Source of the DNA: Pseudomonadota bacterium
Lineage (GTDB): Bacteria; Bdellovibrionota_G; JALEGL01; DATDPG01
Reading direction: 5' to 3'
DNA length: 64,000 nucleotides
Assembly (NCBI GenBank): GCA_043809315.1
Contig: JAZDDX010000024.1
Coordinates: 68,167-132,166 of the forward strand
This document shows, piece after piece, positions 4,916 through 17,879 of the stretch. The translations under genes were made by a program, and so were the position numbers. How positions within the stretch are numbered: position 1 is the first letter of the stretch; each line of letters begins with the position of its first letter. Below the pieces are notes generated by a model that worked only from the letters and a program-made list of their open reading frames with translations, ran no database searches and was not told the DNA's origin.

Positions 4916-5542
4916 TTAGAATTGGGCCAGCTCGGTCTCCAGCATCGCGACGTGCTCTTCTTCCTCGGCCGCCAGCTCTCGATAGATCTCTTTCTCCGGA
5001 CCGTTTGAAAGCGACTTGGCCCGTTTCTGAAAATGATCCCGAGTCTCCTTCTCCATCTCGATCGCTCTCGCGTAGAGCTTTTTCACCTGTCCGGTCACAT
5101 CGTTAAAGTCGATCCCTTTAAAAAGATCGGCCACGAGAACCGCGTCGACATTCGGCGGGAGTTTCAAAACCTCTTTCTCCAAGTGAACGTGATACTTCTT
5201 TTCGAGCTCTTCCAGGTGATCCTGCTCGGAGAGGAACATCTGCTCGAAGATCGCCTTGACCTTCGGGTGGGTCGCGCGGCTCCAACCGAGGCGGTAGAAG
5301 TGGTAGGCGTTGATCTCGAACTGTACCGCTTCCTGGATCGCCTTCATCGAGAGAAGATCTTTTGTTTCATACCCCTTCACAACCTCGATCGCTCCGCCGC
5401 ATAAGTAGCAGCGGCCGTACGGGACGGCGAAGCCGGTGGTAAGTTTCGCGCAGCTCTTGCATTTCCAGGTGGAGCGGATGGCCGCGCAACAGATCGAGTC
5501 GTCGTCCAGTCCCTGGTGACATTTCGGGCATTGAGAAGCCAT
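4916..5542 (-). CDS. Rubrerythrin/ferritin-like diiron protein with Cys-rich N-terminal metal-binding domain
   Basis: CPKC, CC, CKSC, CYLC then ferritin-like ligands FEINAY, EQDH, MEKET, EEEH; GGAGG RBS 10 nt after upstream gene. Confidence 0.8.
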   Translation of the reverse strand: MASQCPKCHQGLDDDSICCAAIRSTWKCKSCAKLTTGFAVPYGRCYLCGGAIEVVKGYETKDLLSMKAIQEAVQFEINAYHFYRLGWSRATHPKVKAIFEQMFLSEQDHLEELEKKYHVHLEKEVLKLPPNVDAVLVADLFKGIDFNDVTGQVKKLYARAIEMEKETRDHFQKRAKSLSNGPEKEIYRELAAEEEEHVAMLETELAQF

Positions 5543-5552
5543 CGGTCCCTCC

Positions 5553-7913
5553 TTACTGAATCCCCATGAACCCGAGCATTGCGCGGGCCGCTTTTCTCCC
5601 GGCCCCCATCGCGAGGATGACGGTCGCCGATCCGGTCACGATGTCACCGCCGGCGTAGACGCCGGGAATGTTCGTGGCGCCGGTCGCCTCGTCGATCACG
5701 AGGTACCCCCATTTGTTCGTTGCGATCCCGGGCGTCGTCTGTGCGATGACCGGGTTGGCGGAAGTCCCCAGGGCGCAGATGATGGTGTCGACGTCGATGT
5801 CGTACTCGGAGCCTGTGATCGGCACCGGGCGTCGCCGCCCCGAATCGTCCGGCTCGCCGAGCTCCATCTTCTGAACGGTCATGTTCTTCACCCATCCGTT
5901 CCCGTTGTCGTTCACCTTAACCGGGGCGGTGAGCCACCGGAAGATGATCCCTTCCTCCATCGCGTGATGGAGTTCCTCCACGCGGGCGGGGGATTCCGCC
6001 TCCGTCCGGCGGTAGACGACTTCCACGGCCTCGGCCCCCATCCGTTTCGAAACGCGCGCGGCATCCATCGCCGTGTTTCCCGCCCCGACGACGGCGATCC
6101 GTTTCCCCATCCCGACCGGCGTGTCGTAAAGAGGCTGTCGAAACCCCTGCATCAGGTTGACTCGGGTTAAGAATTCGTTCGCGGAGAAGACGCCGTTGAG
6201 TGACTCGCCGGGGACTCCGATGAACTTCGGCGATCCGGCACCGGTCGCGACGAAGACGGACGAGTACCCCATCTGCCGCATCAACTGCGGGATCGTGAAG
6301 AGCTTTCCGATGATCGTGTCGAGCTCGATCTTCACCCCGAGTTTTTTCAGGTTGTCGATCTCAACGTCGATGATGTCGTTCGGGAGACGGAACTCCGGGA
6401 TTCCGTATTTCAAAACGCCGCCGGCGACGTGGAGCGCTTCGTAGATCGTGACGTCGATCCCTTTCTTCGCGAGATCTCCCGCACAGGCCAGGCCGGCCGG
6501 TCCGCTTCCGATGATCGCCGCTTTCTTCCCTGCCGGTTTCGTCGGGGTGATTTCGTCCCATCCCCGCCCGACCGCGAAGTCGGCCACGAAACGTTCGAGG
6601 CGTCCGATCGCAACCGATTCCAGCTTGACCCCGACGACACAGGTCGCTTCGCACTGGGTCTCCTGCGGGCAGACGCGTCCGCATACCGCCGGGAGCGCGT
6701 TGGCGTTCTTCAAGATCCGGTACGATTCGCGGAGATCTTTCCGCGCGAGCGCCATGACGAACCCGGGGATGTCGATTTCAACCGGGCAACCGGGGACGCA
6801 TCGTGGTTTCTTGCAGTTGAGACAACGTTGCGCTTCCCCGATCGCCATCTCGAGCGTGTATCCGAGGTTCACCTCTTCGAAATTTCGGGCGCGGACTTCC
6901 GGTTTCTGTTCCGGGACCGGGGTTTTTTTCGGGGCGACCGTCCGGATCGTCTTGACCGGGATCGGTTCACCTGGGGTAGGAGGCGGGTCGGCTTGCGGAA
7001 CGGGACAGAGGGACTGCGGGCTGGCTCGCAACCGATTCGATACGATCGCTGGATCGGATCCGCCGGCGCCGATCGCAGCGAGATTCTCCTTTTCCCGCTT
7101 ATACCGGGCCATCGCCTCCTTCTCCTCGAACTCGAACCGCTTCTGCCGGAGCATCAGCTCGTCGAAATCGACCGCGTGGCCGTCGAAGTCGGGGCCGTCG
7201 ACGCAGGCGAACTTCATCTTCCCGCCGATCGTGACCCTGCACGATCCGCACATGCCGGTTCCGTCGACCATGATCGAGTTAAGCGAGACCATCGTTTTGA
7301 TCCCCAAGGGCCGAGTGACATGCGTGCAGGCCTTCATCATGACGAGCGGGCCGATCGCGATCACTTCCTTCACGTCGGGGTTTTTCGCGAGAACTTCCTT
7401 GAGGGCATCGGTGACGAACCCTTTCATCCCGAACGAACCGTCGTCGGTCGTGACGACCAGCTCGTCGGAATATTTTTTGAACTTGTCCTGCCAGAACATG
7501 AGGTCGTGGTTCCTAAAGCCGATAATCGAGATGGTGTGATTCCCGGCTTCTTTGTGGGCGCGGAGCTGCGGGAAGACCGGCGCGACGCCCAAGCCTCCGC
7601 CGATGAGGACAACTTTTCCGACCGGATGAGCTTCGCTGGCGACCCCCAAGGGTCCGATGAAGTCGAGGATCTCCCCCCCTTCGGGGAGGTCCATCATCTG
7701 GAACGTCGTTTTTCCGACCGCCCGGATGACGACGGTCACGGTTCCCCGTTTCCGGTCGTAGTCGGCGACGGTGAGCGGGATCCGCTCGCCCGTCTCGTCG
7801 AGGCGGACCATCAGGAAATGCCCCGCCTCTGCCGCCGCCGCGACGTAAGGGGCTTCGACTTCCCAGAGATAGGTGACAGGTCCGAACTGCTCCCGCTTGC
7901 GGATCCGGTACAT
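5553..7913 (-). CDS. Fused NfnA-NfnB (SudB-SudA/GltD-like) NADH-dependent ferredoxin:NADP+ oxidoreductase
   Basis: N-half ERIPLT, GPLG, DGTGMCGSCRV...CVDGPDF; C-half CLNCKKPRCVPGCP, CGRVCPQETQC, GSGPAG, YGIPEFRLP, GAGNTAMD. Confidence 0.88.
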   Translation of the reverse strand: MYRIRKREQFGPVTYLWEVEAPYVAAAAEAGHFLMVRLDETGERIPLTVADYDRKRGTVTVVIRAVGKTTFQMMDLPEGGEILDFIGPLGVASEAHPVGKVVLIGGGLGVAPVFPQLRAHKEAGNHTISIIGFRNHDLMFWQDKFKKYSDELVVTTDDGSFGMKGFVTDALKEVLAKNPDVKEVIAIGPLVMMKACTHVTRPLGIKTMVSLNSIMVDGTGMCGSCRVTIGGKMKFACVDGPDFDGHAVDFDELMLRQKRFEFEEKEAMARYKREKENLAAIGAGGSDPAIVSNRLRASPQSLCPVPQADPPPTPGEPIPVKTIRTVAPKKTPVPEQKPEVRARNFEEVNLGYTLEMAIGEAQRCLNCKKPRCVPGCPVEIDIPGFVMALARKDLRESYRILKNANALPAVCGRVCPQETQCEATCVVGVKLESVAIGRLERFVADFAVGRGWDEITPTKPAGKKAAIIGSGPAGLACAGDLAKKGIDVTIYEALHVAGGVLKYGIPEFRLPNDIIDVEIDNLKKLGVKIELDTIIGKLFTIPQLMRQMGYSSVFVATGAGSPKFIGVPGESLNGVFSANEFLTRVNLMQGFRQPLYDTPVGMGKRIAVVGAGNTAMDAARVSKRMGAEAVEVVYRRTEAESPARVEELHHAMEEGIIFRWLTAPVKVNDNGNGWVKNMTVQKMELGEPDDSGRRRPVPITGSEYDIDVDTIICALGTSANPVIAQTTPGIATNKWGYLVIDEATGATNIPGVYAGGDIVTGSATVILAMGAGRKAARAMLGFMGIQ

Positions 7914-7962
7914 AAACGGCGGATACGTAACAAGATTGTTTGAAAAAGGGAACTTCCCCCGT

Positions 7963-8919
7963 TTAGGCGAGGCGGCCCTTGTCCTCGAAACGACAGCGCC
8001 CAGAGCCGGCGTACTTGAGGCCGAGCGATCGGTACTTGGAATACCCGTCGGCGAAGATGGTGACGACCGTCGGGAACCGTCTCCGGAGGCTTTGGGCCGC
8101 CACAAAGTTCGCTCCGGACGACATCCCGATACAGAAACCGAACCTCTCCTCGATGTAGACCGCCGTTTTCTTCGAATCTTCGCTCGAAACCGGGATCACC
8201 TCGTCGATCATCTCATGAAGCCCGTTTTTCTCCCCTTGGGCGATCTTCGGCACGAAGCCATCCCCGATCCCGAAGATCGTGTGAAGCCCCGGGGCCTTCC
8301 CCGCCATGACCTGGGATTCGGCCGGCTCGACGGCGGCCAGATGAATGTTGGGAAACCGTTCACGGAGGGCCTTCCCGACACCGATCAACGTGCCACCGGT
8401 CCCGATTCCGGCAACGAAGGCGTCGATCGGCTTGCCGATCTCGTTCATCTGGTCGAGGATCTCGCGTCCGGTCGTCCGGTAGTGACATTCAACGTTCAAC
8501 GGGTTCGAAAACTGATCCGGGTTGAAGTAGGTCGGATCGTTCGCCATCTCATCCCGGACGCGGGCCGCCTCGGCGAAATCCCCGGCACGGACCAGGATCA
8601 GCTCCGCCCCCAGCTCGCGGATCAACTGTTTCCGTTCGGCCGACATGTTCTCCGGCATCACGATCGTGATCGGATACCCCAACCGCTTCGCGTAAAATGA
8701 GAACGAGATCCCGGTGTTCCCGCTCGTCGCCTCGACGATCTTCATCCCGGGGCGGAGGAGCCCCCGTTTTTCGCTTTTTTCGAGGATGAATTTTGCGATC
8801 CGATCTTTGATGCTGCCGCAGGGGTTCGTGCACTCCAGCTTGGCGTGGATCCCGTCAACTTCGATGAGAGGGGTGTTCCCCGGCTCCTGATTGAGCGCAC
8901 ATCCCGGGTCGTTCGCCAT
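7963..8919 (-). CDS. PLP-dependent cysteine synthase family protein
   Basis: GNTPL, KLECTNPCGSIKDR, EATSGNTG, GIGTGGT; start refined to ATG 8919. Confidence 0.9.
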   Translation of the reverse strand: MANDPGCALNQEPGNTPLIEVDGIHAKLECTNPCGSIKDRIAKFILEKSEKRGLLRPGMKIVEATSGNTGISFSFYAKRLGYPITIVMPENMSAERKQLIRELGAELILVRAGDFAEAARVRDEMANDPTYFNPDQFSNPLNVECHYRTTGREILDQMNEIGKPIDAFVAGIGTGGTLIGVGKALRERFPNIHLAAVEPAESQVMAGKAPGLHTIFGIGDGFVPKIAQGEKNGLHEMIDEVIPVSSEDSKKTAVYIEERFGFCIGMSSGANFVAAQSLRRRFPTVVTIFADGYSKYRSLGLKYAGSGRCRFEDKGRLA

Positions 8920-8929
8920 GGCGCGGACT

Positions 8930-10363
8930 TTACCAGAGGTTGTTCGGGTATCCAGGAAGATATCGGTAGTTCCCGGCGTGGCACTCTTGGCACTTTCCGT
9001 GATCCCAGAAGCTGACCGGGCCGGGGTCGGTCGGGAGGATGTAACTCCGCAGGAGATGGGAGTCATCGTTCCCGTGCGGGTCGTGGCATGAGAGGCACGA
9101 CGCCCCCGTGATCGCGAGGTGGTACCAGTGGAGGTTCTCGACCGTCGTCGTCCCCGTCTTCACGAACTGCGTCGGAAGGGAAGAGGAGGGGCGGGCGATC
9201 GTCGCCGGTCGTTTGAACGACGGGGCGGTGACGTACGTTGCGTAATCGTGGCAGCGGAAACAGGAGTAGTTTTGGGTGTTCCCGGAGAGCCAGAACATCG
9301 CATCTTCCGTCTCGAGGAGATGGGTGTGCTCCGAGCCGTGCGGCGCGTGGCACGCGGTGCAATTCCCTTTTTGGAACGGGTCATGGAGGTTCCGGCTGTT
9401 GTTCAAAATCGCCTGCATGTTCCGTGTCGTTCCGTACTGCGTGGAGGTGAGTTCGGCATTGTGGCAGTTGAAGCAGAGTTGCGGCTCTGAGGCGGTCAGA
9501 AGATGCGGCAGCGTTCCGTTGTGTGGCCGGTGGCAGCGGAGGCACGAATCACCGGTCTGGGCGACGGAATGTTTGTACGTCGTGACCTTGCCGAGATCGA
9601 TGTGGCACTTCGTGCAGAGAACCGGCGGAGCGGCGGCAAGAAGGTGAGGGCCGGCCGCCTTGTTGACGTCCGTCACGTGACACGCCGTGCAGGGGCCGTT
9701 CTTGGCTGGCTCATGCTGGACGGCGATCGAAGGGTCGGGAAGATCGTCGTGGCAGGTGACGCAATTGGGTGTGAGGCCAGGACTTGCCCGAAAGATTCCG
9801 TGGCAGTTCGAGCATTCCGGAAGACCGGTCGCGAATTGGCCGAGCGCTCGTGCCCCATGGGCGCCGGCGTTCTTCCAGCCCGGGTCGTGGGGGTACTGCG
9901 AGTGACATCTCCGGCAACTGACGGAGGAGAGCCCCCCCTGTAGGCCGGCGCCGTGGCAGGAGGTGGCGCAGTTCGTCCGAATCGCACCCGACATCGCATT
10001 CGAAGTGGAGGCGATCGTCGTGATATGGACGTTGGTCGCACCCCAACCGTCCGGATGAGGGAAGTTCGTATGGCAACTCTTGCATCCGGGAGGACCGTCG
10101 GTTCCGTTGCCGGTTCCGTTCAGGTCGTGGCATTCGTTGCATCGGTCGACGGCCAGCTTGCCGCTTGGATCGATGGCAGCAACACCGTGCGCATTCGGTT
10201 CGGCCCAACCCATGAGATGCGGAAATACGACGTAGTTTCCGTTCCCGTAGGCGGTGGCGGCGTTTCCATTTCCCCGTTTGTGGGTAGCGTTTTCCGCGCA
10301 CCCACCCGCGAAGATCAGGAGCGTGGCAGCCGCTACGGTCCGAATTGACAGCAAATGACGCAT
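8930..10363 (-). CDS. Multiheme c-type cytochrome lipoprotein (13 CxxCH + 1 CxxxCH)
   Basis: Lipoprotein-like signal ending FAGGC; heme motifs counted in translation; paired CxxCH..PH...LL...LCxxCH units in C-half. Confidence 0.88.
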   Translation of the reverse strand: MRHLLSIRTVAAATLLIFAGGCAENATHKRGNGNAATAYGNGNYVVFPHLMGWAEPNAHGVAAIDPSGKLAVDRCNECHDLNGTGNGTDGPPGCKSCHTNFPHPDGWGATNVHITTIASTSNAMSGAIRTNCATSCHGAGLQGGLSSVSCRRCHSQYPHDPGWKNAGAHGARALGQFATGLPECSNCHGIFRASPGLTPNCVTCHDDLPDPSIAVQHEPAKNGPCTACHVTDVNKAAGPHLLAAAPPVLCTKCHIDLGKVTTYKHSVAQTGDSCLRCHRPHNGTLPHLLTASEPQLCFNCHNAELTSTQYGTTRNMQAILNNSRNLHDPFQKGNCTACHAPHGSEHTHLLETEDAMFWLSGNTQNYSCFRCHDYATYVTAPSFKRPATIARPSSSLPTQFVKTGTTTVENLHWYHLAITGASCLSCHDPHGNDDSHLLRSYILPTDPGPVSFWDHGKCQECHAGNYRYLPGYPNNLW

Positions 10364-10412
10364 CGTGTAGAAACGCCTATTATCCGAACTCGCTTCGGAG
10401 TGCAACGCAAAG
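10364..10412. promoter_or_regulatory. 49-bp divergent intergenic region with palindrome TCCGAA-N5-TTCGGA
   Basis: Inverted repeat at 10383-10399 between the two cytochrome starts. Confidence 0.35.
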
Positions 10413-11297
10413 ATGAAACCGGCCCTTCGATGGATCTGTTGGTTGACCGTGACCACCCTGCCCGTGGGGGATGCCCTCTTTGCACAGCAAGCAGGCGAGT
10501 CTCCGTATCAGGGGAGCGCGGCCTGTTTGGTCTGTCACGACGCGAAGTTGCAACTCTTCCCCCACAACAACATGACCGAGACCGCCGCTTCGGCGGCAAA
10601 GATCCGAAAAAACCCGGCCTGCGAGAGCTGCCATGGACCGGGGACGGAGCACGTCAACGCAGACGACGCCGACAAACCGGCGAAGATCTACGGTCCCAAG
10701 AACATCAAGGAGATCGAAAAGTTCGAGGAGCAGTGCCTTGGTTGCCACAAGGATAGCCCGGAAAAGGTCGGGGAGTTTCCGTTTAGTGCGCACAAGAGCC
10801 ACGACATCACCTGCTCGAACTGTCATCAGGTTCACGTCCCAGGAACTTTCAAGCCTTCACAGCCGGAGATCTGCTTTACCTGTCACCGCGACGTTCGTGC
10901 TCAATTCAACAAAATCTACGTTCACCCATCCGTAGCACGCGATCCAAATGGACCGTATGAGGACGGGAAACTGTACTGGTGCCAAGCTTGCCACAATCCC
11001 CACGAGCGTTCCTTGCGGTCCGAATTGAAGAAAGAACGCTGCCTTGAGTGTCATCAGGACAAAGGGGGCGGGGGGACCTTCGAGCATGCCGGGAACAACG
11101 AAGACGGCTGTCTGACCTGCCACGATCCACATGGCGCTGGCCGTCGATTCCTACTCAAAGCGGAAGTACGGATGGTCTGCCTCGATTGTCATTCCGACAA
11201 GTACAGGAAGCATCACGAAGCTTCTGGCAAGACCTGTCTCGCCTGCCACGCGAACGCGTTCCACGGCGACGGCCTTGCTCCCCGGAGTGTTAAATGA
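10413..11297 (+). CDS. MtrA/DmsE-like periplasmic decaheme cytochrome c
   Basis: Signal peptide, exactly 10 CxxCH, YQGSAACLVCH and CESCHGPG..H motifs. Confidence 0.85.
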   Translation: MKPALRWICWLTVTTLPVGDALFAQQAGESPYQGSAACLVCHDAKLQLFPHNNMTETAASAAKIRKNPACESCHGPGTEHVNADDADKPAKIYGPKNIKEIEKFEEQCLGCHKDSPEKVGEFPFSAHKSHDITCSNCHQVHVPGTFKPSQPEICFTCHRDVRAQFNKIYVHPSVARDPNGPYEDGKLYWCQACHNPHERSLRSELKKERCLECHQDKGGGGTFEHAGNNEDGCLTCHDPHGAGRRFLLKAEVRMVCLDCHSDKYRKHHEASGKTCLACHANAFHGDGLAPRSVK

Positions 11298-13216
11298 ACC
11301 GGCATGGGTTCCATCTGGGGCTGTTGCTTCTTCTCGTGACGATGCCCGTGGAGGCTCAATCCGATAGCACCGCGGTCGCTTCCGACACGTCCCACGTTGC
11401 CGTGGCTCAGGAGCCTCAAAAACCATTCGATCCTTCTGCACCGGTGACAACCGTGAAGGTGGAGTTCCGCCCGATCCAGACGCTTTCTGGGGAGAACGAC
11501 ATGTACCGGTCGCAGCACAATCCCAACATGCGTCTGCTTGATCTGACGCTCCGAATGCAGCGGCCGACCGGCGTCTACGACGAGATGCGCTTCGAGCTCT
11601 CGGGGCTCCGGAACCCCAACACGTTCGACGATATCGACGTGACGCTCCGGAAGATCCGCAAATACCAGCTGAACCTCTATCACCGACGGCAAAAGACGTT
11701 CTTCTCCGACGAGGGGGGGGACCTTCAGGGGAGCGGGTTCGACATCGAAACGCGCGAAACCGGAGGAAAGCTCGCGCTTTCGCCACTGCGCAACTTCGCG
11801 GTGAACTTCGGGTATGCCCGGCGCGAGTCGGACGGCCAGCTTGGATCCTCATATCATTCCCCGTGGGACGAGTTTCCTCTCACATCCATCCGGAACTGGT
11901 TGTCCGATCGTTACTCGGGCGGGATGACACTGAACACCGGGAACTTCATGATCGGTGTCGATCAGAGCTATCGCCAACTTCACGTGAACGAGAACATCGT
12001 TCTGCGGGACGGGGGGAGCGAAGGGGCCGACGGATCGGACCAGGCACAACTCCTCTCGTACGGCATCAACAAACCGAGGGACGGGGAGTTCTACAAAACG
12101 AACGCCAAGCTCCAGTGGCACAAGGGGCCCATTCAGATCCTGGCTCGCTACGTGGCGATCCGCGACGAGATCTCTTTGAACGCCCTCGGATCCCTTTCAC
12201 AGACGAACCCGGTCGGGACGCTCGCGACCGAAAGCGATACCTGGAAGAGCTCTGTAAAGAGGTTCACCGATCGCGGCGAGGTGGTCGCGCGCTGGAAGGT
12301 CGCTCGTCCAGCTGTTTTAGCCCTGCGGATCGAGACCGAGCAGTATGCGATGGACGGGACCACACGACAGAAAGTCTCGGGCCTTAACTTCGGAATCCCG
12401 GTGGAACTCGATCAGGTTTACAAGCGATCCACGGCGATCGGCACGAACTCCGTGAACGCCTCAGCCGAATTCGGCCCGTTCGGGCCGCTGACGATCGATC
12501 TCGGTACCTCCGCCTTCGGGCGCAAGGTCGAGACGAAGAACACCGACGCCGACGTCGTGACCTCGAGCACCGTCGAGCAGGGAGGGATCTCGTTCAACGC
12601 GGGGGCTCGTCTCTCCTGGCCCTGGTGTAAGATCGAAGGAAAATATCAGGGTGGGAAGATCGATAATGCTCTTACCGCATTGACTCCGTTGACCGGCTCG
12701 AAGTCGGAAGGAAGCATTCACCTCATTCCCAAGGAGGGGTTCGACCTTTACGGGAAGGTCGTCTCCCGCAAGCGGACGAACGACCATACGCTGGTTGGAA
12801 TCGGCCCGGTCTTTGATTCCAATTGGCTCACGATGACAATGGGGGCGTCTATCGACGTAAAGCCGTTTCACCTCGATTTCACCCACGCGCTCTTCAACAC
12901 GACGACCGGAGCAGTTGTATTGGATCAGGCCGATGGCGCGATGGTCGGCCGGATCTTGACCGACGATCTGAACGACGCCTCCAACAGTGTCAATGCATCG
13001 GTCGACCTCGGTTTCTGCCGGGCGGAGTTCAAGGCGTTTCAAAGCGACGTATCGGGGAGCTATCCGTACACCACCTCAAGGATCGAGCCGAAGCTCTTCT
13101 TCCAGCTTCCCTACGGTTTCGGCGTCGGTGTCGGCGGGTTCCGGTACAGATTCGATAATCCGACGACGAACTACGACGTCAGCGGCGCGGTCGTTTCGAT
13201 TCAGATCAACCAGTAA
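11294..13216 (+). CDS. Outer membrane beta-barrel, putative MtrB/PioB-like porin
   Basis: ATGA overlap with decaheme gene; signal peptide; 640 aa of alternating amphipathic strands. Confidence 0.7.
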   Translation: MNRHGFHLGLLLLLVTMPVEAQSDSTAVASDTSHVAVAQEPQKPFDPSAPVTTVKVEFRPIQTLSGENDMYRSQHNPNMRLLDLTLRMQRPTGVYDEMRFELSGLRNPNTFDDIDVTLRKIRKYQLNLYHRRQKTFFSDEGGDLQGSGFDIETRETGGKLALSPLRNFAVNFGYARRESDGQLGSSYHSPWDEFPLTSIRNWLSDRYSGGMTLNTGNFMIGVDQSYRQLHVNENIVLRDGGSEGADGSDQAQLLSYGINKPRDGEFYKTNAKLQWHKGPIQILARYVAIRDEISLNALGSLSQTNPVGTLATESDTWKSSVKRFTDRGEVVARWKVARPAVLALRIETEQYAMDGTTRQKVSGLNFGIPVELDQVYKRSTAIGTNSVNASAEFGPFGPLTIDLGTSAFGRKVETKNTDADVVTSSTVEQGGISFNAGARLSWPWCKIEGKYQGGKIDNALTALTPLTGSKSEGSIHLIPKEGFDLYGKVVSRKRTNDHTLVGIGPVFDSNWLTMTMGASIDVKPFHLDFTHALFNTTTGAVVLDQADGAMVGRILTDDLNDASNSVNASVDLGFCRAEFKAFQSDVSGSYPYTTSRIEPKLFFQLPYGFGVGVGGFRYRFDNPTTNYDVSGAVVSIQINQ

Positions 13217-13220
13217 AAAA

Positions 13221-13673
13221 CTACGGAAGGGTCGTGTGGCAGGTGGAGCAGGCAGGGGATTTTCCCGGACTCGTTCCGCCGGTCGCATGGCACGACGTAC
13301 ACCCCGAGTATCCGCTGTTGGCCGTCTCTTTCGCTTCCGTCCCGTGTCGATAAGCCGCAACCCATTGATCCCGGTGCGGGTAGCCGGCGTGACAGCTGCG
13401 GCATCCAGGAGGGCCGTCCGTTCTTCTCCCATCGATGTCGTGACATCCGTTGCATCGTTCGACGGCTAGCTTCCCGTCCGTACCCAGCGCTAGTGGTCCA
13501 TGAGCGGCCATCGCGGCGAATCCGGAAGGATGTGGGAAGGTGATGGCGATCCCCTGGCCGTCGGAGGTGAAGATTTCAGCCGTCGTGCCGGTCCGGACCG
13601 AGGTTCCACCGCAAGCACCAACCAGAAAACCGATCAAGACGAGGAGAGCGGGGGGGGGAAATCGGCGGCGCAT
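13221..13673 (-). CDS. Tetraheme c-type cytochrome lipoprotein
   Basis: Lipobox VGAC; CNGCH, CRSCH, CTSCH, CSTCH; similar to N-terminus of 8930-10363. Confidence 0.85.
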   Translation of the reverse strand: MRRRFPPPALLVLIGFLVGACGGTSVRTGTTAEIFTSDGQGIAITFPHPSGFAAMAAHGPLALGTDGKLAVERCNGCHDIDGRRTDGPPGCRSCHAGYPHRDQWVAAYRHGTEAKETANSGYSGCTSCHATGGTSPGKSPACSTCHTTLP

Positions 13674-13697
13674 TTGAGTGATGCCCCGCGTCATATC

Positions 13698-14891
13698 TCA
13701 GTTCGACGAACTTTTCAAGGGGGAATTGGAAGGGGAAAGAAAGGGGATCAGCAGCAGAGCAAGGACGGCGACCGCGCTTCCGAAATAGAACGGTGCGGCC
13801 GGCGAAATCTTGTCCCACAGGAGTCCGGCGACGACGCTCGAAACAACCGTGGTGAGTCCCGTCGACATCTGAAAAAGTCCCATCGCCGTTCCCCGGCGGT
13901 CGGCCGGAGCGTTCTCGGCGATCAGCGCCTTCCCGACCCCATGGACGAGGCCGATGTAACAACCGTATAGGGCGAAGAGGGGGAATACGGTGATCATCGT
14001 CGCCTTGGCAAAACCGAAATAGACGGCCGCGTAAATCCCCCAGCCGAGAGCGATCACCCGCCAGCGTCCGAGACGGTCGCTTACGATTCCAGCCGGGTAG
14101 GAGATGGCGGCGTACGTGAGGTTGTAAATGGCATAAGCGAGGATCACCGTCGAATCTGCGAGGCCGACGCTTTTCGCCCGGAGAAGGAGGAGCGTGTCGC
14201 TGCTGTTGGCAAGAGCGAAGAGAAGAAACAGAGCGAGAGTGCGCCAGTACGACGCCGGGAAATCAAACCATTCCCGGAGCGAGGGTCGGGGGAGGGTTGC
14301 AGCAGGTCGGGGAGCGGCTTCCCGGAGCCGAAACGCGAGCCAGACGGCGGCTATGCCGGGGAGAACGGCCAAGACGAAGATCATCCGATAGCTCTGGGGC
14401 AGGAAGCGGAGGAGAAGGGCCGAGAGGAGTACGCCGGTCAACGCCCCGGCGGTGTCCATGGCGCGGTGAAACCCGAACCCGCGGCCGAGGTTTTCTTTCG
14501 TGCTTCCATCCGCGATCAGCGCGTCCCGGGCGGAACTCCGGAGCCCTTTTCCGACCCGGTCCAACGAGCGGGCGAACAGAACAACCGGCCAGTGGAACGC
14601 AAGCGCCAGGAGGGGCTTCGAAGCGGCCGCCAGGCCGTATCCCCAGCGAATGAGCGGGAGCCTTCGTCCTGAACGATCGCTCTGCCAGCCGGAGAGGCCG
14701 TTCATGACGTTGACGATCCCCTCGGCGACTCCCTCGATCGAGCCAAGGACGACGACGGGCAGTCCCAGAACGCCGACGACGAAGAGGGGGATGACGGGGT
14801 AGACCATCTCCGATGCGACGTCGGTCAGAAAGCTGATCCAGCCGAGCTTACGTACGGTCGGCGACAGCCTGGGCGGTTTCGTTGGATTCAT
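13698..14891 (-). CDS. MFS transporter
   Basis: About 12 TM; SFLTDVASEMVYP, SDRSGRR, DRVGKGLRSSARDALI. Confidence 0.9.
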   Translation of the reverse strand: MNPTKPPRLSPTVRKLGWISFLTDVASEMVYPVIPLFVVGVLGLPVVVLGSIEGVAEGIVNVMNGLSGWQSDRSGRRLPLIRWGYGLAAASKPLLALAFHWPVVLFARSLDRVGKGLRSSARDALIADGSTKENLGRGFGFHRAMDTAGALTGVLLSALLLRFLPQSYRMIFVLAVLPGIAAVWLAFRLREAAPRPAATLPRPSLREWFDFPASYWRTLALFLLFALANSSDTLLLLRAKSVGLADSTVILAYAIYNLTYAAISYPAGIVSDRLGRWRVIALGWGIYAAVYFGFAKATMITVFPLFALYGCYIGLVHGVGKALIAENAPADRRGTAMGLFQMSTGLTTVVSSVVAGLLWDKISPAAPFYFGSAVAVLALLLIPFLSPSNSPLKSSSN

Positions 14892-16137
14892 GGCTCAGAA
14901 GTTTGGAGTTGAAGAAAGCGATGCCAAGCCAGAGGCCGGCTGCGGCAAGCGCGATCCACGAATAGAACGTCGACATCGCGAGCCCGGCCCGTTGCAGAAG
15001 AACCACGACGACCGAGGTCCCCCCTTTTGCGAATCGGTATCCGAACGTGTCGATCATCTCCTTGGCGCGGTAGCGGGCGTCGAAAGAGAGCGGGATGTAG
15101 AGCGTCTCCTTGGCGGCTCCGAAGAGGGAGTAATCGAACGCCTTGAAGGCGAAGAAGCAGAGTCCAGCCGTCCAAAGGGACGGGGAGGCGGAGAGAATCC
15201 CGGCGGTGATCACGTTGACCGCGGCGACCCCCCCCAGGATCCAGAAGGCCGGGATCCTCCTCATCAGGAGGGGGGCGATCAGGAACTGAAGAAAGAGACC
15301 GACCGCATTGAGTCCGGTGAAGAACCTCCCGGAAAACGCGGTCTGCCGGTTGACGTCGGGGATCGCGTCCTGCAGTAACCCCTCGTATCGAAAATTCGCC
15401 GTAGCGGAAACGATCTGACTTAAAAGGACGAGCCCGAGGACCACGGCTAAAACCGGAACGGATCGAAAGAGGTGCAGACCGAGCTGGCCCCGTTTCCCTT
15501 TCTCCTCGCCAGTGGTCGGCACCGGCTCGCCGCAGAGGCGATAGGCGATGTCGGAGCAAAGAGCCGCCGGGACGAACGATATCGTCCCCAGAAGAAGGAG
15601 CGTGTGGGCTCCGAGTCGCACCGCAAGAGTGGAGGTCAGGAGTCCGCCGGCGATCGCCCCGAGGGAGGAGATCCCGATGACCGGCCCGTTCCAGCTCCGG
15701 GCGTTCCCGATCCGGAGCGTCGAGTTCAGGAACGACCAGTACTGGGCGATGATCAGGATCACGTACGCTTCCTTGAGGATCCACATCGCGCCGGTGGCGG
15801 CTCGCGAGCCGCTCTCGATCCCCGCGATGCAGGCGAGAGCGAGGAGCCCGGAAAAGAGCGTCGTGACGAGGAGGGCCCGGCGGGGTCCCAGCCAAGAGAG
15901 GAATCGAGCGTAGAAGTAGATCATGGCGAGGAGGCCGAACGGCATCAGCGCGGTCACCGCGGGGAGCGCGTCGGCGCCGTACGCCGCTTTGAAGAGGGAG
16001 TTCGAGGAACTTCGGAACAGCTCGTAGCCGCAGAGAAGGAATGCGGCCGCCATTCCCATCGGGATCACCGCCCGAAGATGTTGCCGGGGGGGTCGATTCA
16101 CGGCGTAACAATATGCGGTGATTCCGTTTCGTGGCAA
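14848..16137 (-). CDS. NTT/TLC (Npt1/Npt2-like) nucleotide transporter family protein
   Basis: Polytopic; KAFDYSLFGAAKETLYIPL...RYRAKEMIDTFGYRFAKG; start uncertain. Confidence 0.7.
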   Translation of the reverse strand: MPRNGITAYCYAVNRPPRQHLRAVIPMGMAAAFLLCGYELFRSSSNSLFKAAYGADALPAVTALMPFGLLAMIYFYARFLSWLGPRRALLVTTLFSGLLALACIAGIESGSRAATGAMWILKEAYVILIIAQYWSFLNSTLRIGNARSWNGPVIGISSLGAIAGGLLTSTLAVRLGAHTLLLLGTISFVPAALCSDIAYRLCGEPVPTTGEEKGKRGQLGLHLFRSVPVLAVVLGLVLLSQIVSATANFRYEGLLQDAIPDVNRQTAFSGRFFTGLNAVGLFLQFLIAPLLMRRIPAFWILGGVAAVNVITAGILSASPSLWTAGLCFFAFKAFDYSLFGAAKETLYIPLSFDARYRAKEMIDTFGYRFAKGGTSVVVVLLQRAGLAMSTFYSWIALAAAGLWLGIAFFNSKLLSHESNETAQAVADRT

Positions 16138-16160
16138 GGTTCGTTATAAGAGTTCGCTTC

Positions 16161-17879
16161 ATGAAACGGTCTACGTGGCTCACCCTGGCTCTTCTCGCGA
16201 CGGCGTTCGCCGTCTACGGGATCTCGCTCCGGAACCCCCTCTATTTTGACGATCTGACGATTCTCCTGGGGAACACGTGGCTCTACAAAGGATCGTTCTT
16301 GAACTGGTTCGTCTCCCCGTTCCTCGACTTCTCCCAGAACTTCCCGGGGTATCGACCGCTTTTAATGATGAGTTTCGCGGCGAATGTACGTCTTCTCGGG
16401 GATTCGGCCGCCGCGATCCGGATCGTCAACCTCCTGCTTCACGCGTTCAACGCACTCCTCCTGGCCCGGATCCTGTCGCGCTTGATCCGCGATGAGTCGA
16501 TGAAGTGGATGGCATGGGGAGCCGCGTTCCTCTTTCTTCTGCATCCGATTCAAACCCTGGGCGTCAATTTTCTCTGGAAGAGGAGCACGCTCCTCTCGGT
16601 CTTTTTCATCCTGGCCGGAGTGTTCTGGCACGTTCGAGAGCGGCAGCGGTTCGCGGCCTACCGGTGGAGATCGGTCCTCGCCCAGGGTCTGATTCTGGTC
16701 GTTGCCTTCTTCTGCAAGGAGGATGCGCTTGTTCTCGGTCCGCTCCTTCTTCTGGTCGACCTCTGTTTTTTCCGGGAGCGGAAGACATGGTTGGGACTCT
16801 CTTCTCTGGCGCTCTATCTCCTGTTGGCGGCTCTGAGTCTGCTGCTCTTGTGGTTCCGGCTTTCCGTTGTGAATTCGTGGATCGTGGTCCTGAAACAATC
16901 GAAGGCGGTCGACCGCCGTGGCACGGACCGGTTTACGTATCTGCTTTTCTCCGCCGATGTCGTCCGAAGGTACCTCTTGCTTTGGCTCGTTCCGAAACCT
17001 CTTCTTCTGGATGATCCGTCTCCCCTCAAGAGCTTTCCTTGGGCCGGTCTGGTGGCCTACGTCTTGTCGGTCGTAGGAACGGTTCTTCTCGTGATCCGTT
17101 TCCGTGCGAAACCGATCGTGTGGTTCGCGTTGGGGATGTTCTGGATCGGCCTCGCCCCCACGACCGGGCCGCTTCCGATCTATCTCGTGATGGACCAGAT
17201 CCGAATGTACCTCCCTCTCGCGGGACTCTGTTTTCTGCTGGTGTTCGGGTTGGACGCGGCGGCCAGAAAGGTTCGCGCAGCGCCGCTCCTGCTGGTTTGC
17301 GCGGTGGGGGTCGCCTACGGAGCGGAAAGTTTCCTTCAGAACCTCCGGTACCGTCATCCGATCGCGATCTGGGGGGATGTGCTCGAGGAGTATCCGGAGA
17401 GCGGGATGGCGTGGGAGTACATGGCCGCCTCTATGGATATGGCCGGCCTGGAGGAAGAGAAGGCGTTCGCCTGGGATATGGCCGGACGGGTCGAATCCGG
17501 CGCCCCGATCTATCGTGTGTTTCAGAAGTTGATGAAGCTCGAGAAGGTGTCGTCGAAGGAACGGAAAAAAGGGCTCGACGCGATCAACTTCAGCGATTTC
17601 AATCCGCGACAGCTGGTGAACATCGCGACCTGGGAGGCGAAGCACGGGGAGGAGAAACGTGCGGAAGCCCATTTTCTCGAGGCGATCGGGCGCAACCCTT
17701 GGAGCTTCACGGCCCACTTCAATCTGGGAATCTTGTCGGAGAAACTCGGGAAGCTCGATCAGGCACGGCGAGCTTTTTCCAACGCGCTTTTCCTGGCGCC
17801 GCAGGATCCCCGTGCGCAGGCGGCCGTCAAGCGTCTCGGCCGTCCGGCCGGACCTCCCGAAATCGTCCTACCGCACTGA
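16161..17879 (+). CDS. TMTC-like GT-C membrane protein with C-terminal TPR (putative protein O-glycosyltransferase)
   Basis: FDD after TM1, YRPL, HAFN, FLLHPIQ, KE, RMYLP, TPR (AHFNLG). Confidence 0.75.
   Translation: MKRSTWLTLALLATAFAVYGISLRNPLYFDDLTILLGNTWLYKGSFLNWFVSPFLDFSQNFPGYRPLLMMSFAANVRLLGDSAAAIRIVNLLLHAFNALLLARILSRLIRDESMKWMAWGAAFLFLLHPIQTLGVNFLWKRSTLLSVFFILAGVFWHVRERQRFAAYRWRSVLAQGLILVVAFFCKEDALVLGPLLLLVDLCFFRERKTWLGLSSLALYLLLAALSLLLLWFRLSVVNSWIVVLKQSKAVDRRGTDRFTYLLFSADVVRRYLLLWLVPKPLLLDDPSPLKSFPWAGLVAYVLSVVGTVLLVIRFRAKPIVWFALGMFWIGLAPTTGPLPIYLVMDQIRMYLPLAGLCFLLVFGLDAAARKVRAAPLLLVCAVGVAYGAESFLQNLRYRHPIAIWGDVLEEYPESGMAWEYMAASMDMAGLEEEKAFAWDMAGRVESGAPIYRVFQKLMKLEKVSSKERKKGLDAINFSDFNPRQLVNIATWEAKHGEEKRAEAHFLEAIGRNPWSFTAHFNLGILSEKLGKLDQARRAFSNALFLAPQDPRAQAAVKRLGRPAGPPEIVLPH

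Follow-up and report, generated by a model that had tools for sequence, protein, structure and literature searches.

A distant MtrA/MtrB-type pair and a repeat-bearing lipoprotein cytochrome at a putative conduit for electrons across the outer membrane

Gene content and conservation of the locus

How might electrons cross the outer membrane at a locus that encodes a decaheme cytochrome and a large beta-barrel, but has two other lipoprotein cytochromes where MtrC might be expected? This question is raised by four genes, hereafter A–D, in a 64,000-nt window (contig JAZDDX010000024.1, 68,167–132,166; all positions are those of this window) from a bacterial genome of 2.4 Mb that is 96% complete (G000). 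A (8930–10363, minus strand; 477 aa, with its ATG start at 10363) is a 14-haem lipoprotein cytochrome c, B (10413–11297, plus strand; 294 aa, 10 CxxCH) is an MtrA/DmsE-like decaheme cytochrome c, C (11294–13216, plus strand; 640 aa, no haem motif) is a predicted, distant MtrB-family outer-membrane beta-barrel, and D (13221–13673, minus strand; 150 aa, 4 CxxCH; alternative ATG at 13694) is a 4-haem lipoprotein. Based on homology and predicted fold, B and C read as a distant MtrA/MtrB-type porin-cytochrome pair and very probably form an outer-membrane electron conduit. The fuller reading, in which A is a surface extension that replaces MtrC and electrons flow outward to an extracellular acceptor, is given slightly less than an even chance.

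A sequence-only reading of this DNA had described the same four genes, and the open reading frames bear out its layout, strands, and haem counts, including the total of 28 haem sites (27 CxxCH and one conserved CxxxCH). The start of C overlaps the stop of B by four bases (ATGA), in keeping with the translational coupling it proposed. A and B are divergent with 49 bases between their ATGs, and C and D are convergent with 4 bases between their stops. No further open reading frame of ≥100 aa with ≥2 CxxCH was found in the window and, again as described, no quinol oxidoreductase was recognised there in a family scan of 10 neighbouring proteins; candidates lie elsewhere in the genome. The combination of A, B, and C is found again in relatives from two other genera of the same family (G001 and G004), showing that the locus is not a chance arrangement. 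Decaheme-before-barrel order and the 4-base overlap are kept in both relatives, and A is divergent from the decaheme gene in G001 as it is in G000.

The decaheme-barrel pair and its wider family

B matched Shewanella MtrA (6r2q_A; E 3.6e-28) over its length (residues 22–283) and has the ten CxxCH motifs and conserved distal His of an MtrAB-superfamily decaheme. It scored 159 bits on the DmsE model TIGR03508, below the cut-off of 192. C did not match any Pfam or NCBIfam model, including PF11854 (MtrB/PioB); a word-index homologue search returned C alone, and a single-sequence PDB search gave nothing relevant. The HMM checks suggested earlier were split: homology to MtrA held, whereas neither the DmsE nor the MtrB/PioB model was passed. 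Failing these two cut-offs excludes the curated subfamilies, not the MtrAB superfamily, and PF11854 was passed by three of 40 scanned homologues (40 of 150 listed matches).

More distant comparisons placed C with MtrB. Relatives of C with 24–27% identity are present in two of the four other genomes of its family and in none of the 56 other genomes searched. A profile of the three family barrels (G000, G001, and G004) retrieved 480 proteins at E ≤0.001, and a 109-row alignment of full-length matches hit MtrB (6r2q_B; E 8e-14; positions 82–629 of 630) as the sole PDB match; C and MtrB share only 11–12% identity. The predicted structure of C (pLDDT 91) has about 26 strands, as counted from the model strand list, and the MtrB barrel is described with 26 strands (6r2q; PMC7198977). 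MtrB was the top Foldseek match of the model (TM 0.68), and structural alignment with MtrB gave a Z of 22.6 and an rmsd of 3.4 over 547 residues. A TonB-dependent receptor or an ordinary porin was considered for C and rejected, given that other TM scores were at most 0.47 and the next-best Z was 15.9. The model and the profile thus agree with the proposal of an MtrB-like barrel and, together with the MtrA match of B, with that of an MtrAB-type pair; C passed the test by which a failure to model as a sufficiently large barrel would have refuted the earlier reading.

The barrel family extends well beyond this lineage. Of 201 genomes sampled from another phylum, which includes a Geothrix genome and which we take to be Acidobacteriota, 64 have it. 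Because this family fails PF11854, HMM-based surveys are likely to undercount MtrAB conduits, and a dedicated profile for PF11854-negative barrels would improve them. Twenty barrel loci of that phylum (L298–L317) were chosen by score and contig span for neighbour analysis. In all 20, the gene directly upstream of the barrel is of the decaheme type (one has nine strict motifs), and in five of them an OmcA/MtrC protein over cut-off precedes the decaheme (15 neighbours scanned), which indicates that the barrel family works with surface cytochromes. The neighbours of PF11854-negative barrels vary, comprising MtrC in those five loci, 5-haem proteins, CbcL-like or NapC-like genes, or none of these. 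In a quick, midpoint-rooted tree, which has long branches and rows picked by the profile of the three family barrels, these three cluster separately from the 20 others.

The decaheme itself varies within the family. In G004 it has 14 haems, with four extra at the N-terminus, and it belongs to a single run (L005 9172–14494) in which the 14-haem decaheme and the barrel are preceded by genes for a membrane cytochrome with 9 haems and a b561-type cytochrome. This arrangement is possibly a direct inner-to-outer membrane wire.

Structure and relatives of lipoproteins A and D

A combines two different multihaem parts. Its lipobox, read from the sequence, is FAGG-C22, and residues ~45–210 hold three two-haem repeats of ~55 aa (H-P-x-x-W...H-G...CxxCH-G-x-x-L-x-G-G...CxxCH), followed at residues ~215–477 by an eight-haem ‘doubled CXXCH’ domain of a common family (PF09699, 96.7 bits). 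A has 13 CxxCH motifs, so that its count of 14 haems depends on a non-canonical CxxxCH (CATSCH, residues 132–137), which is invariant in all four orthologues. Fifteen invariant non-motif His accompany the 14 haems and would be enough for bis-His ligation throughout. G001, G004, and one other record have orthologues with 42–53% identity, and the fusion of repeats with the doubled-CXXCH domain was seen in four proteins only. The G004 orthologue has 18 haems, with five repeats versus three in A. Structure prediction from a four-sequence alignment was of low confidence (pLDDT 30.8). A metagenome search with the A alignment gave, among the matches listed, only distant doubled-CXXCH proteins (24–33% identity), and a barrel of the C family was beside none of the 80 loci among those matches, which is not proof of absence.

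D is a smaller protein built of the same unit, with a lipobox (LVGA-C, read from the sequence) and two copies of the two-haem repeat. It shares 39% identity over 142 aa with the N-terminus of A, and 76% DNA identity over 82 bases. On this evidence D is best described as a paralogue of that N-terminus, a lineage-specific short duplicate of the anchor-proximal repeats. Among the 17 genomes of the phylum D was found in G000 only; its position in G001 is taken by an unrelated CxxxxCH/CxxCH lipoprotein cytochrome, and G004 has no counterpart. Genes for an MFS transporter and a TLC ATP/ADP-transporter-like protein (13698–16137, minus strand) run straight into D, whose alternative start at 13694 is 3 bases after the MFS stop. 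D is the last gene of this run and may be co-transcribed with the transporters.

Neither A nor D matched TIGR03507 (OmcA/MtrC), and an OmcA/MtrC protein over cut-off was absent from all 17 genomes of the phylum, confirming that MtrC is missing from the locus. The repeat of A and D, each copy of which keeps two extra His, is widespread: a pattern scan found at least 126 stretches in Geomonas, Nitrospirae, Myxococcales, KSB1, Calditrichia, and other records. After removal of 2 duplicates, 78 distinct flanked loci remained, 72 of which have a repeat protein, and stand-alone tetrahaem repeat proteins of 138–150 aa, like D, occur in other repeat loci. No curated family model for the repeat was found in the libraries scanned, nor any matching solved structure beyond generic CxxCH matches.

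The repeat profile also matched 35 of the 58 genomes in the family of G062. In genome G279, the sole match among 57 scored candidates was a protein (L282) that, by eye, resembles G. sulfurreducens ExtG/OmcV and lies behind a protein that reads as OmaV (by eye, against supplement file 5 of PMC11492766). The N-terminal repeats of A aligned with L282 at an hhalign probability of 96.7 (E 4.6e-10) and a pairwise BLASTP E of 2e-6, and A and D both follow the ExtG/OmcV-type plan of a lipobox and then tandem H-P-x-x-W...H...CxxCH...CxxCH units. Sequence comparison therefore suggests that the repeat of A and D is distantly homologous to that of ExtG/OmcV. A Geomonas/Geobacter hexahaem family was tried as ExtD and rejected (0 of 121 have the ExtD C-terminus, and published ExtD differs); its profile matched A weakly (E 1.3e-4, 1000 targets) and D not at all. 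As described in PMC6148476 and PMC8357294, surface lipoproteins are often swapped, and ExtABCD has two lipoprotein cytochromes. The earlier description of an ‘unfamiliar pair’ was not sustained, since D is a paralogue of A confined to G000, the shared building block is widespread and known from Geobacter conduits, and a conduit with two lipoproteins already has a precedent.

Probable partnership of A, membrane side, and direction of electron flow

Based on gene context, A is a probable partner of B and C. A-type repeats and the full-length barrel co-occur in the same three of the 17 genomes of the phylum, and G002 has a smaller Pcc-type cluster without A and without a barrel of the C family. 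The expectation that the lipoproteins accompany the pair elsewhere was borne out for A and failed for D. We lean, with less assurance, towards A lying outside rather than inside the outer membrane. This placement draws on the lipobox, the distal lipoprotein position that repeat proteins hold in Pcc-type barrel-cytochrome clusters elsewhere, the lack of MtrC, and a GspD-like secretin locus. G004 keeps an 18-haem A although its lengthened decaheme lies behind a cytochrome b, which would fit an A that is not a periplasmic bridge.

Candidate electron donors are encoded elsewhere in the genome. Contig C39 carries a NapC/NirT-domain membrane cytochrome and two multihaem-plus-cytochrome-b proteins, which we label ImcH-like and CbcL-like, respectively, from architecture, their matches being under cut-off. 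These genes and a Pcc-type conduit occupy C39:32951–45178 (L016); a Pcc-type cluster with a 7-haem and a 9-haem cytochrome is at C37:1–3100 (L017), and a 27-haem cytochrome at C26:62799–67132. The genome has Ccm genes, four secretins (one being the GspD-like protein), and a bd oxidase; searches for COX2, FixO, and RuBisCO gave no match, the assembly being 96% complete. Its one COX1-family gene (721 aa) presumably encodes a quinol-type NO reductase. The futalosine enzymes MqnA/D had no match in G000 despite several quinol-linked enzymes. In Geobacter, as PMC12307469 describes, ImcH and CbcL work in the outward direction. Given the ImcH/CbcL-like genes and the lack of a detected cytochrome c oxidase, outward flow is a good deal more plausible than not.

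Several observations weigh against the reading of A as the surface partner of an outward conduit, and they lend substance to three alternatives. One is that A and D are surface cytochromes of smaller Pcc-type conduits (a ~410-aa barrel with a 7-haem cytochrome), or stand-alone proteins, and lie beside B and C because cytochrome genes cluster. Elsewhere, the repeat family usually adjoins ~400-aa Pcc-type proteins: one is within 5 kb in 38 of 72 repeat loci (31 of 65 without the 7 loci that seeded the repeat profile), their identity as barrels being presumed. The MtrB clade of C was near repeat proteins in 0 of 80 flanked loci, and the 20 barrel loci of the other phylum gave one weak repeat match (19 bits). 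A is encoded on the strand opposite to that of B and C; in G004 it is ~3.5 kb from the barrel, directly beside and divergent from a different, ~410-aa barrel-type gene, and G001 has a Pcc-type cluster within ~5 kb. D terminates a transporter run, and the co-occurrence of A with the barrel is not independent evidence, coming from three genomes of one family with weak statistics. However, G000 has its Pcc-type clusters on different contigs from A, which remains beside B and C, and G002 has such a cluster without A; we consider this alternative improbable. A second alternative accepts the partnership and places A on the inner face as a lipid-tethered periplasmic wire that feeds haem 1 of B with electrons coming from inner-membrane quinol oxidases, leaving B and C uncapped to reduce soluble acceptors. 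Few relatives of the eight-haem half of A have a lipobox (11 of 117 match a lipobox pattern), and the 13 genome open reading frames with ≥2 CxxCH do not include a small soluble shuttle of three or four haems. The loop between haems 9 and 10, which in MtrA (residues 284–306) is the part exposed to MtrC (as described in PMC7198977), is short in B: 14 residues in all three family members, compared to ~30 in Shewanella MtrA (roughly twice as long), 24–25 in five MtrC-linked decahemes, and 14–24 in 15 decahemes without MtrC from the other-phylum loci. ExtG was predicted to be periplasmic by Otero et al. (2018), and MtrAB alone is described as reducing soluble Fe(III) (PMC7198977, PMC4245776). Against this stand the distal position of repeat lipoproteins in Pcc-type clusters, the retention of A beside the lengthened G004 decaheme, and the 9-haem and 27-haem cytochromes that could bridge the periplasm instead. 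A periplasmic A is rather unlikely, yet a stronger contender than a non-partner A.

The third alternative concerns direction. Haem wires are reversible, and the conduit could run inward like MtoAB/PioAB, with Fe(II), reduced humics, or a partner cell as the electron donor. Against this, the genome has no match to COX2, FixO, or RuBisCO, and it has a lone COX1-family gene that we read as an NO reductase. No small periplasmic carrier like MtoD or PioC was recognised among the scanned neighbours. MtrAB without MtrC is nevertheless the pattern described for several Fe(II) oxidisers (PMC4245776, PMC5566968, PMC8805035). The Geobacter relatives of the ImcH/CbcL-like genes act outward (PMC12307469), which speaks against the inward reading; that these genes adjoin their own conduit cluster on C39 counts against the main reading. 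On balance, inward flow is the least likely of the three alternatives, and quite improbable.

Proposed mechanism and comparison with known conduits

Under outward flow with A at the surface, quinol would be oxidised by the ImcH-like or CbcL-like inner-membrane cytochromes of contig C39, whose genes are present and whose link to this locus is presumed. A periplasmic multihaem carrier would pass the electrons to haem 1 of B. Homology and fold support B and C individually, and by analogy with MtrAB, B seated in C would carry electrons across the outer membrane. Lipid-anchored A, exported perhaps by a type II secretion system, would take electrons from haem 10 of B through its repeat domain and relay them along its eight-haem C-terminal domain; D would be an optional alternative cap at most.

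The locus is likely a member of the MtrAB superfamily that is neither MtrCAB nor of the Geobacter Pcc family, a remixed known system rather than a new machine. As in Shewanella MtrCAB, a decaheme homologous to MtrA over its length lies directly upstream of a barrel predicted to have the 26-strand MtrB fold. It differs in having no OmcA/MtrC, a PF11854-negative barrel with little identity to MtrB, a haem 9–10 loop about half as long, and no adjoining CymA. The putatively acidobacterial loci share the barrel family, behind a decaheme in 20 of 20 loci and with MtrC in five, whereas the three family barrels group apart in the quick tree and are accompanied by A. Publications on acidobacteria already describe mtrCAB and divergent Mtr-like conduits, among them Group 5 (PMC8805035) and EET2 (bioRxiv 10.64898/2026.05.27.727921), to which our 20 loci may correspond, and Mtr genes are described in Desulfobacterota (PMC12133095). 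MtoAB/PioAB likewise pair a decaheme with an MtrB-type barrel without MtrC; unlike them, the pair described here is accompanied by a conserved multihaem lipoprotein, in a genome that gave no match for a cytochrome c oxidase or for RuBisCO.

The likeness to Geobacter lies in the lipoproteins. The N-terminal repeats of A appear homologous to an ExtG-type protein (ExtG = OmcV, GSU2724) of ExtEFG, and ExtABCD likewise has two lipoprotein cytochromes on one conduit (PMC6148476). The Geobacter Pcc conduits (ExtEFG, ExtABCD, OmbB-OmaB-OmcB) have a smaller barrel unrelated to MtrB and a pentahaem or octahaem partner; for ExtEFG and ExtABCD these are described as an 18–21-segment barrel and a pentahaem OmaV/W-type partner (PMC6148476, PMC8357294, PMC11492766), whereas C is MtrB-like and B is MtrA-like. 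A also differs in fusing repeats to a doubled-CXXCH domain, and A and D are not orthologues of ExtC or ExtD; ExtD has one repeat-like unit, by eye only.

Mtr and Pcc conduits have been described as independently evolved, and a locus in which an MtrAB core is combined with a lipoprotein of the ExtG type would allow a direct test of whether they are interchangeable. More speculatively, and with less weight than the surface-extension reading itself, the locus may be a chimeric conduit: an MtrAB core that the standard MtrB model misses would bear as its cap a modular lipoprotein wire of the Geobacter Pcc lineage, with a length tuned by repeat number (2 in D, 3 in A, and 5 in G004), and this wire would dock on a decaheme from which most of the MtrC-binding loop has been lost. 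If so, it would show that an Mtr core and a Pcc-type surface module can be interchanged. Because the repeat has no solved relative by sequence, D, as a short tetrahaem protein, is a small natural construct for solving its fold. Divergent MtrAB with a swapped surface cytochrome in uncultured bacteria is a general picture already in print. Full-text searching, whose scope did not extend to subscription papers and preprint supplements, returned no description of this locus or of MtrAB with an ExtG-type lipoprotein.

Intergenic region and neighbouring genes

A conserved 32-base element upstream of B (10345–10376, plus strand) starts with TTGACA and overlaps the first codons of A. It matches the same place in G001 at 25 of 32 bases, compared to a best of 17–20 in 20 base shuffles, and is likely the promoter of the decaheme gene. 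A consensus promoter/terminator scan, which was at chance level overall, did not call it. Between the divergent starts, a perfect palindrome (TCCGAA-N5-TTCGGA; 10383–10399) is unique in G000, has no equivalent in G001 by eye, and is possibly an operator.

On the minus strand beyond A (4916–8919), a PLP-dependent enzyme, cysteine-synthase-like in our reading, starts 10 bases past the A stop, and after it come genes for a fused flavoprotein of the NfnAB/SudAB kind and for a rubrerythrin; this run does not adjoin A in G001 or G004. On the plus strand (16131–17879), a membrane protein of ~580 aa with C-terminal TPRs is encoded, and a similar protein lies a few kb from the G001 locus (L004 13717–15468).

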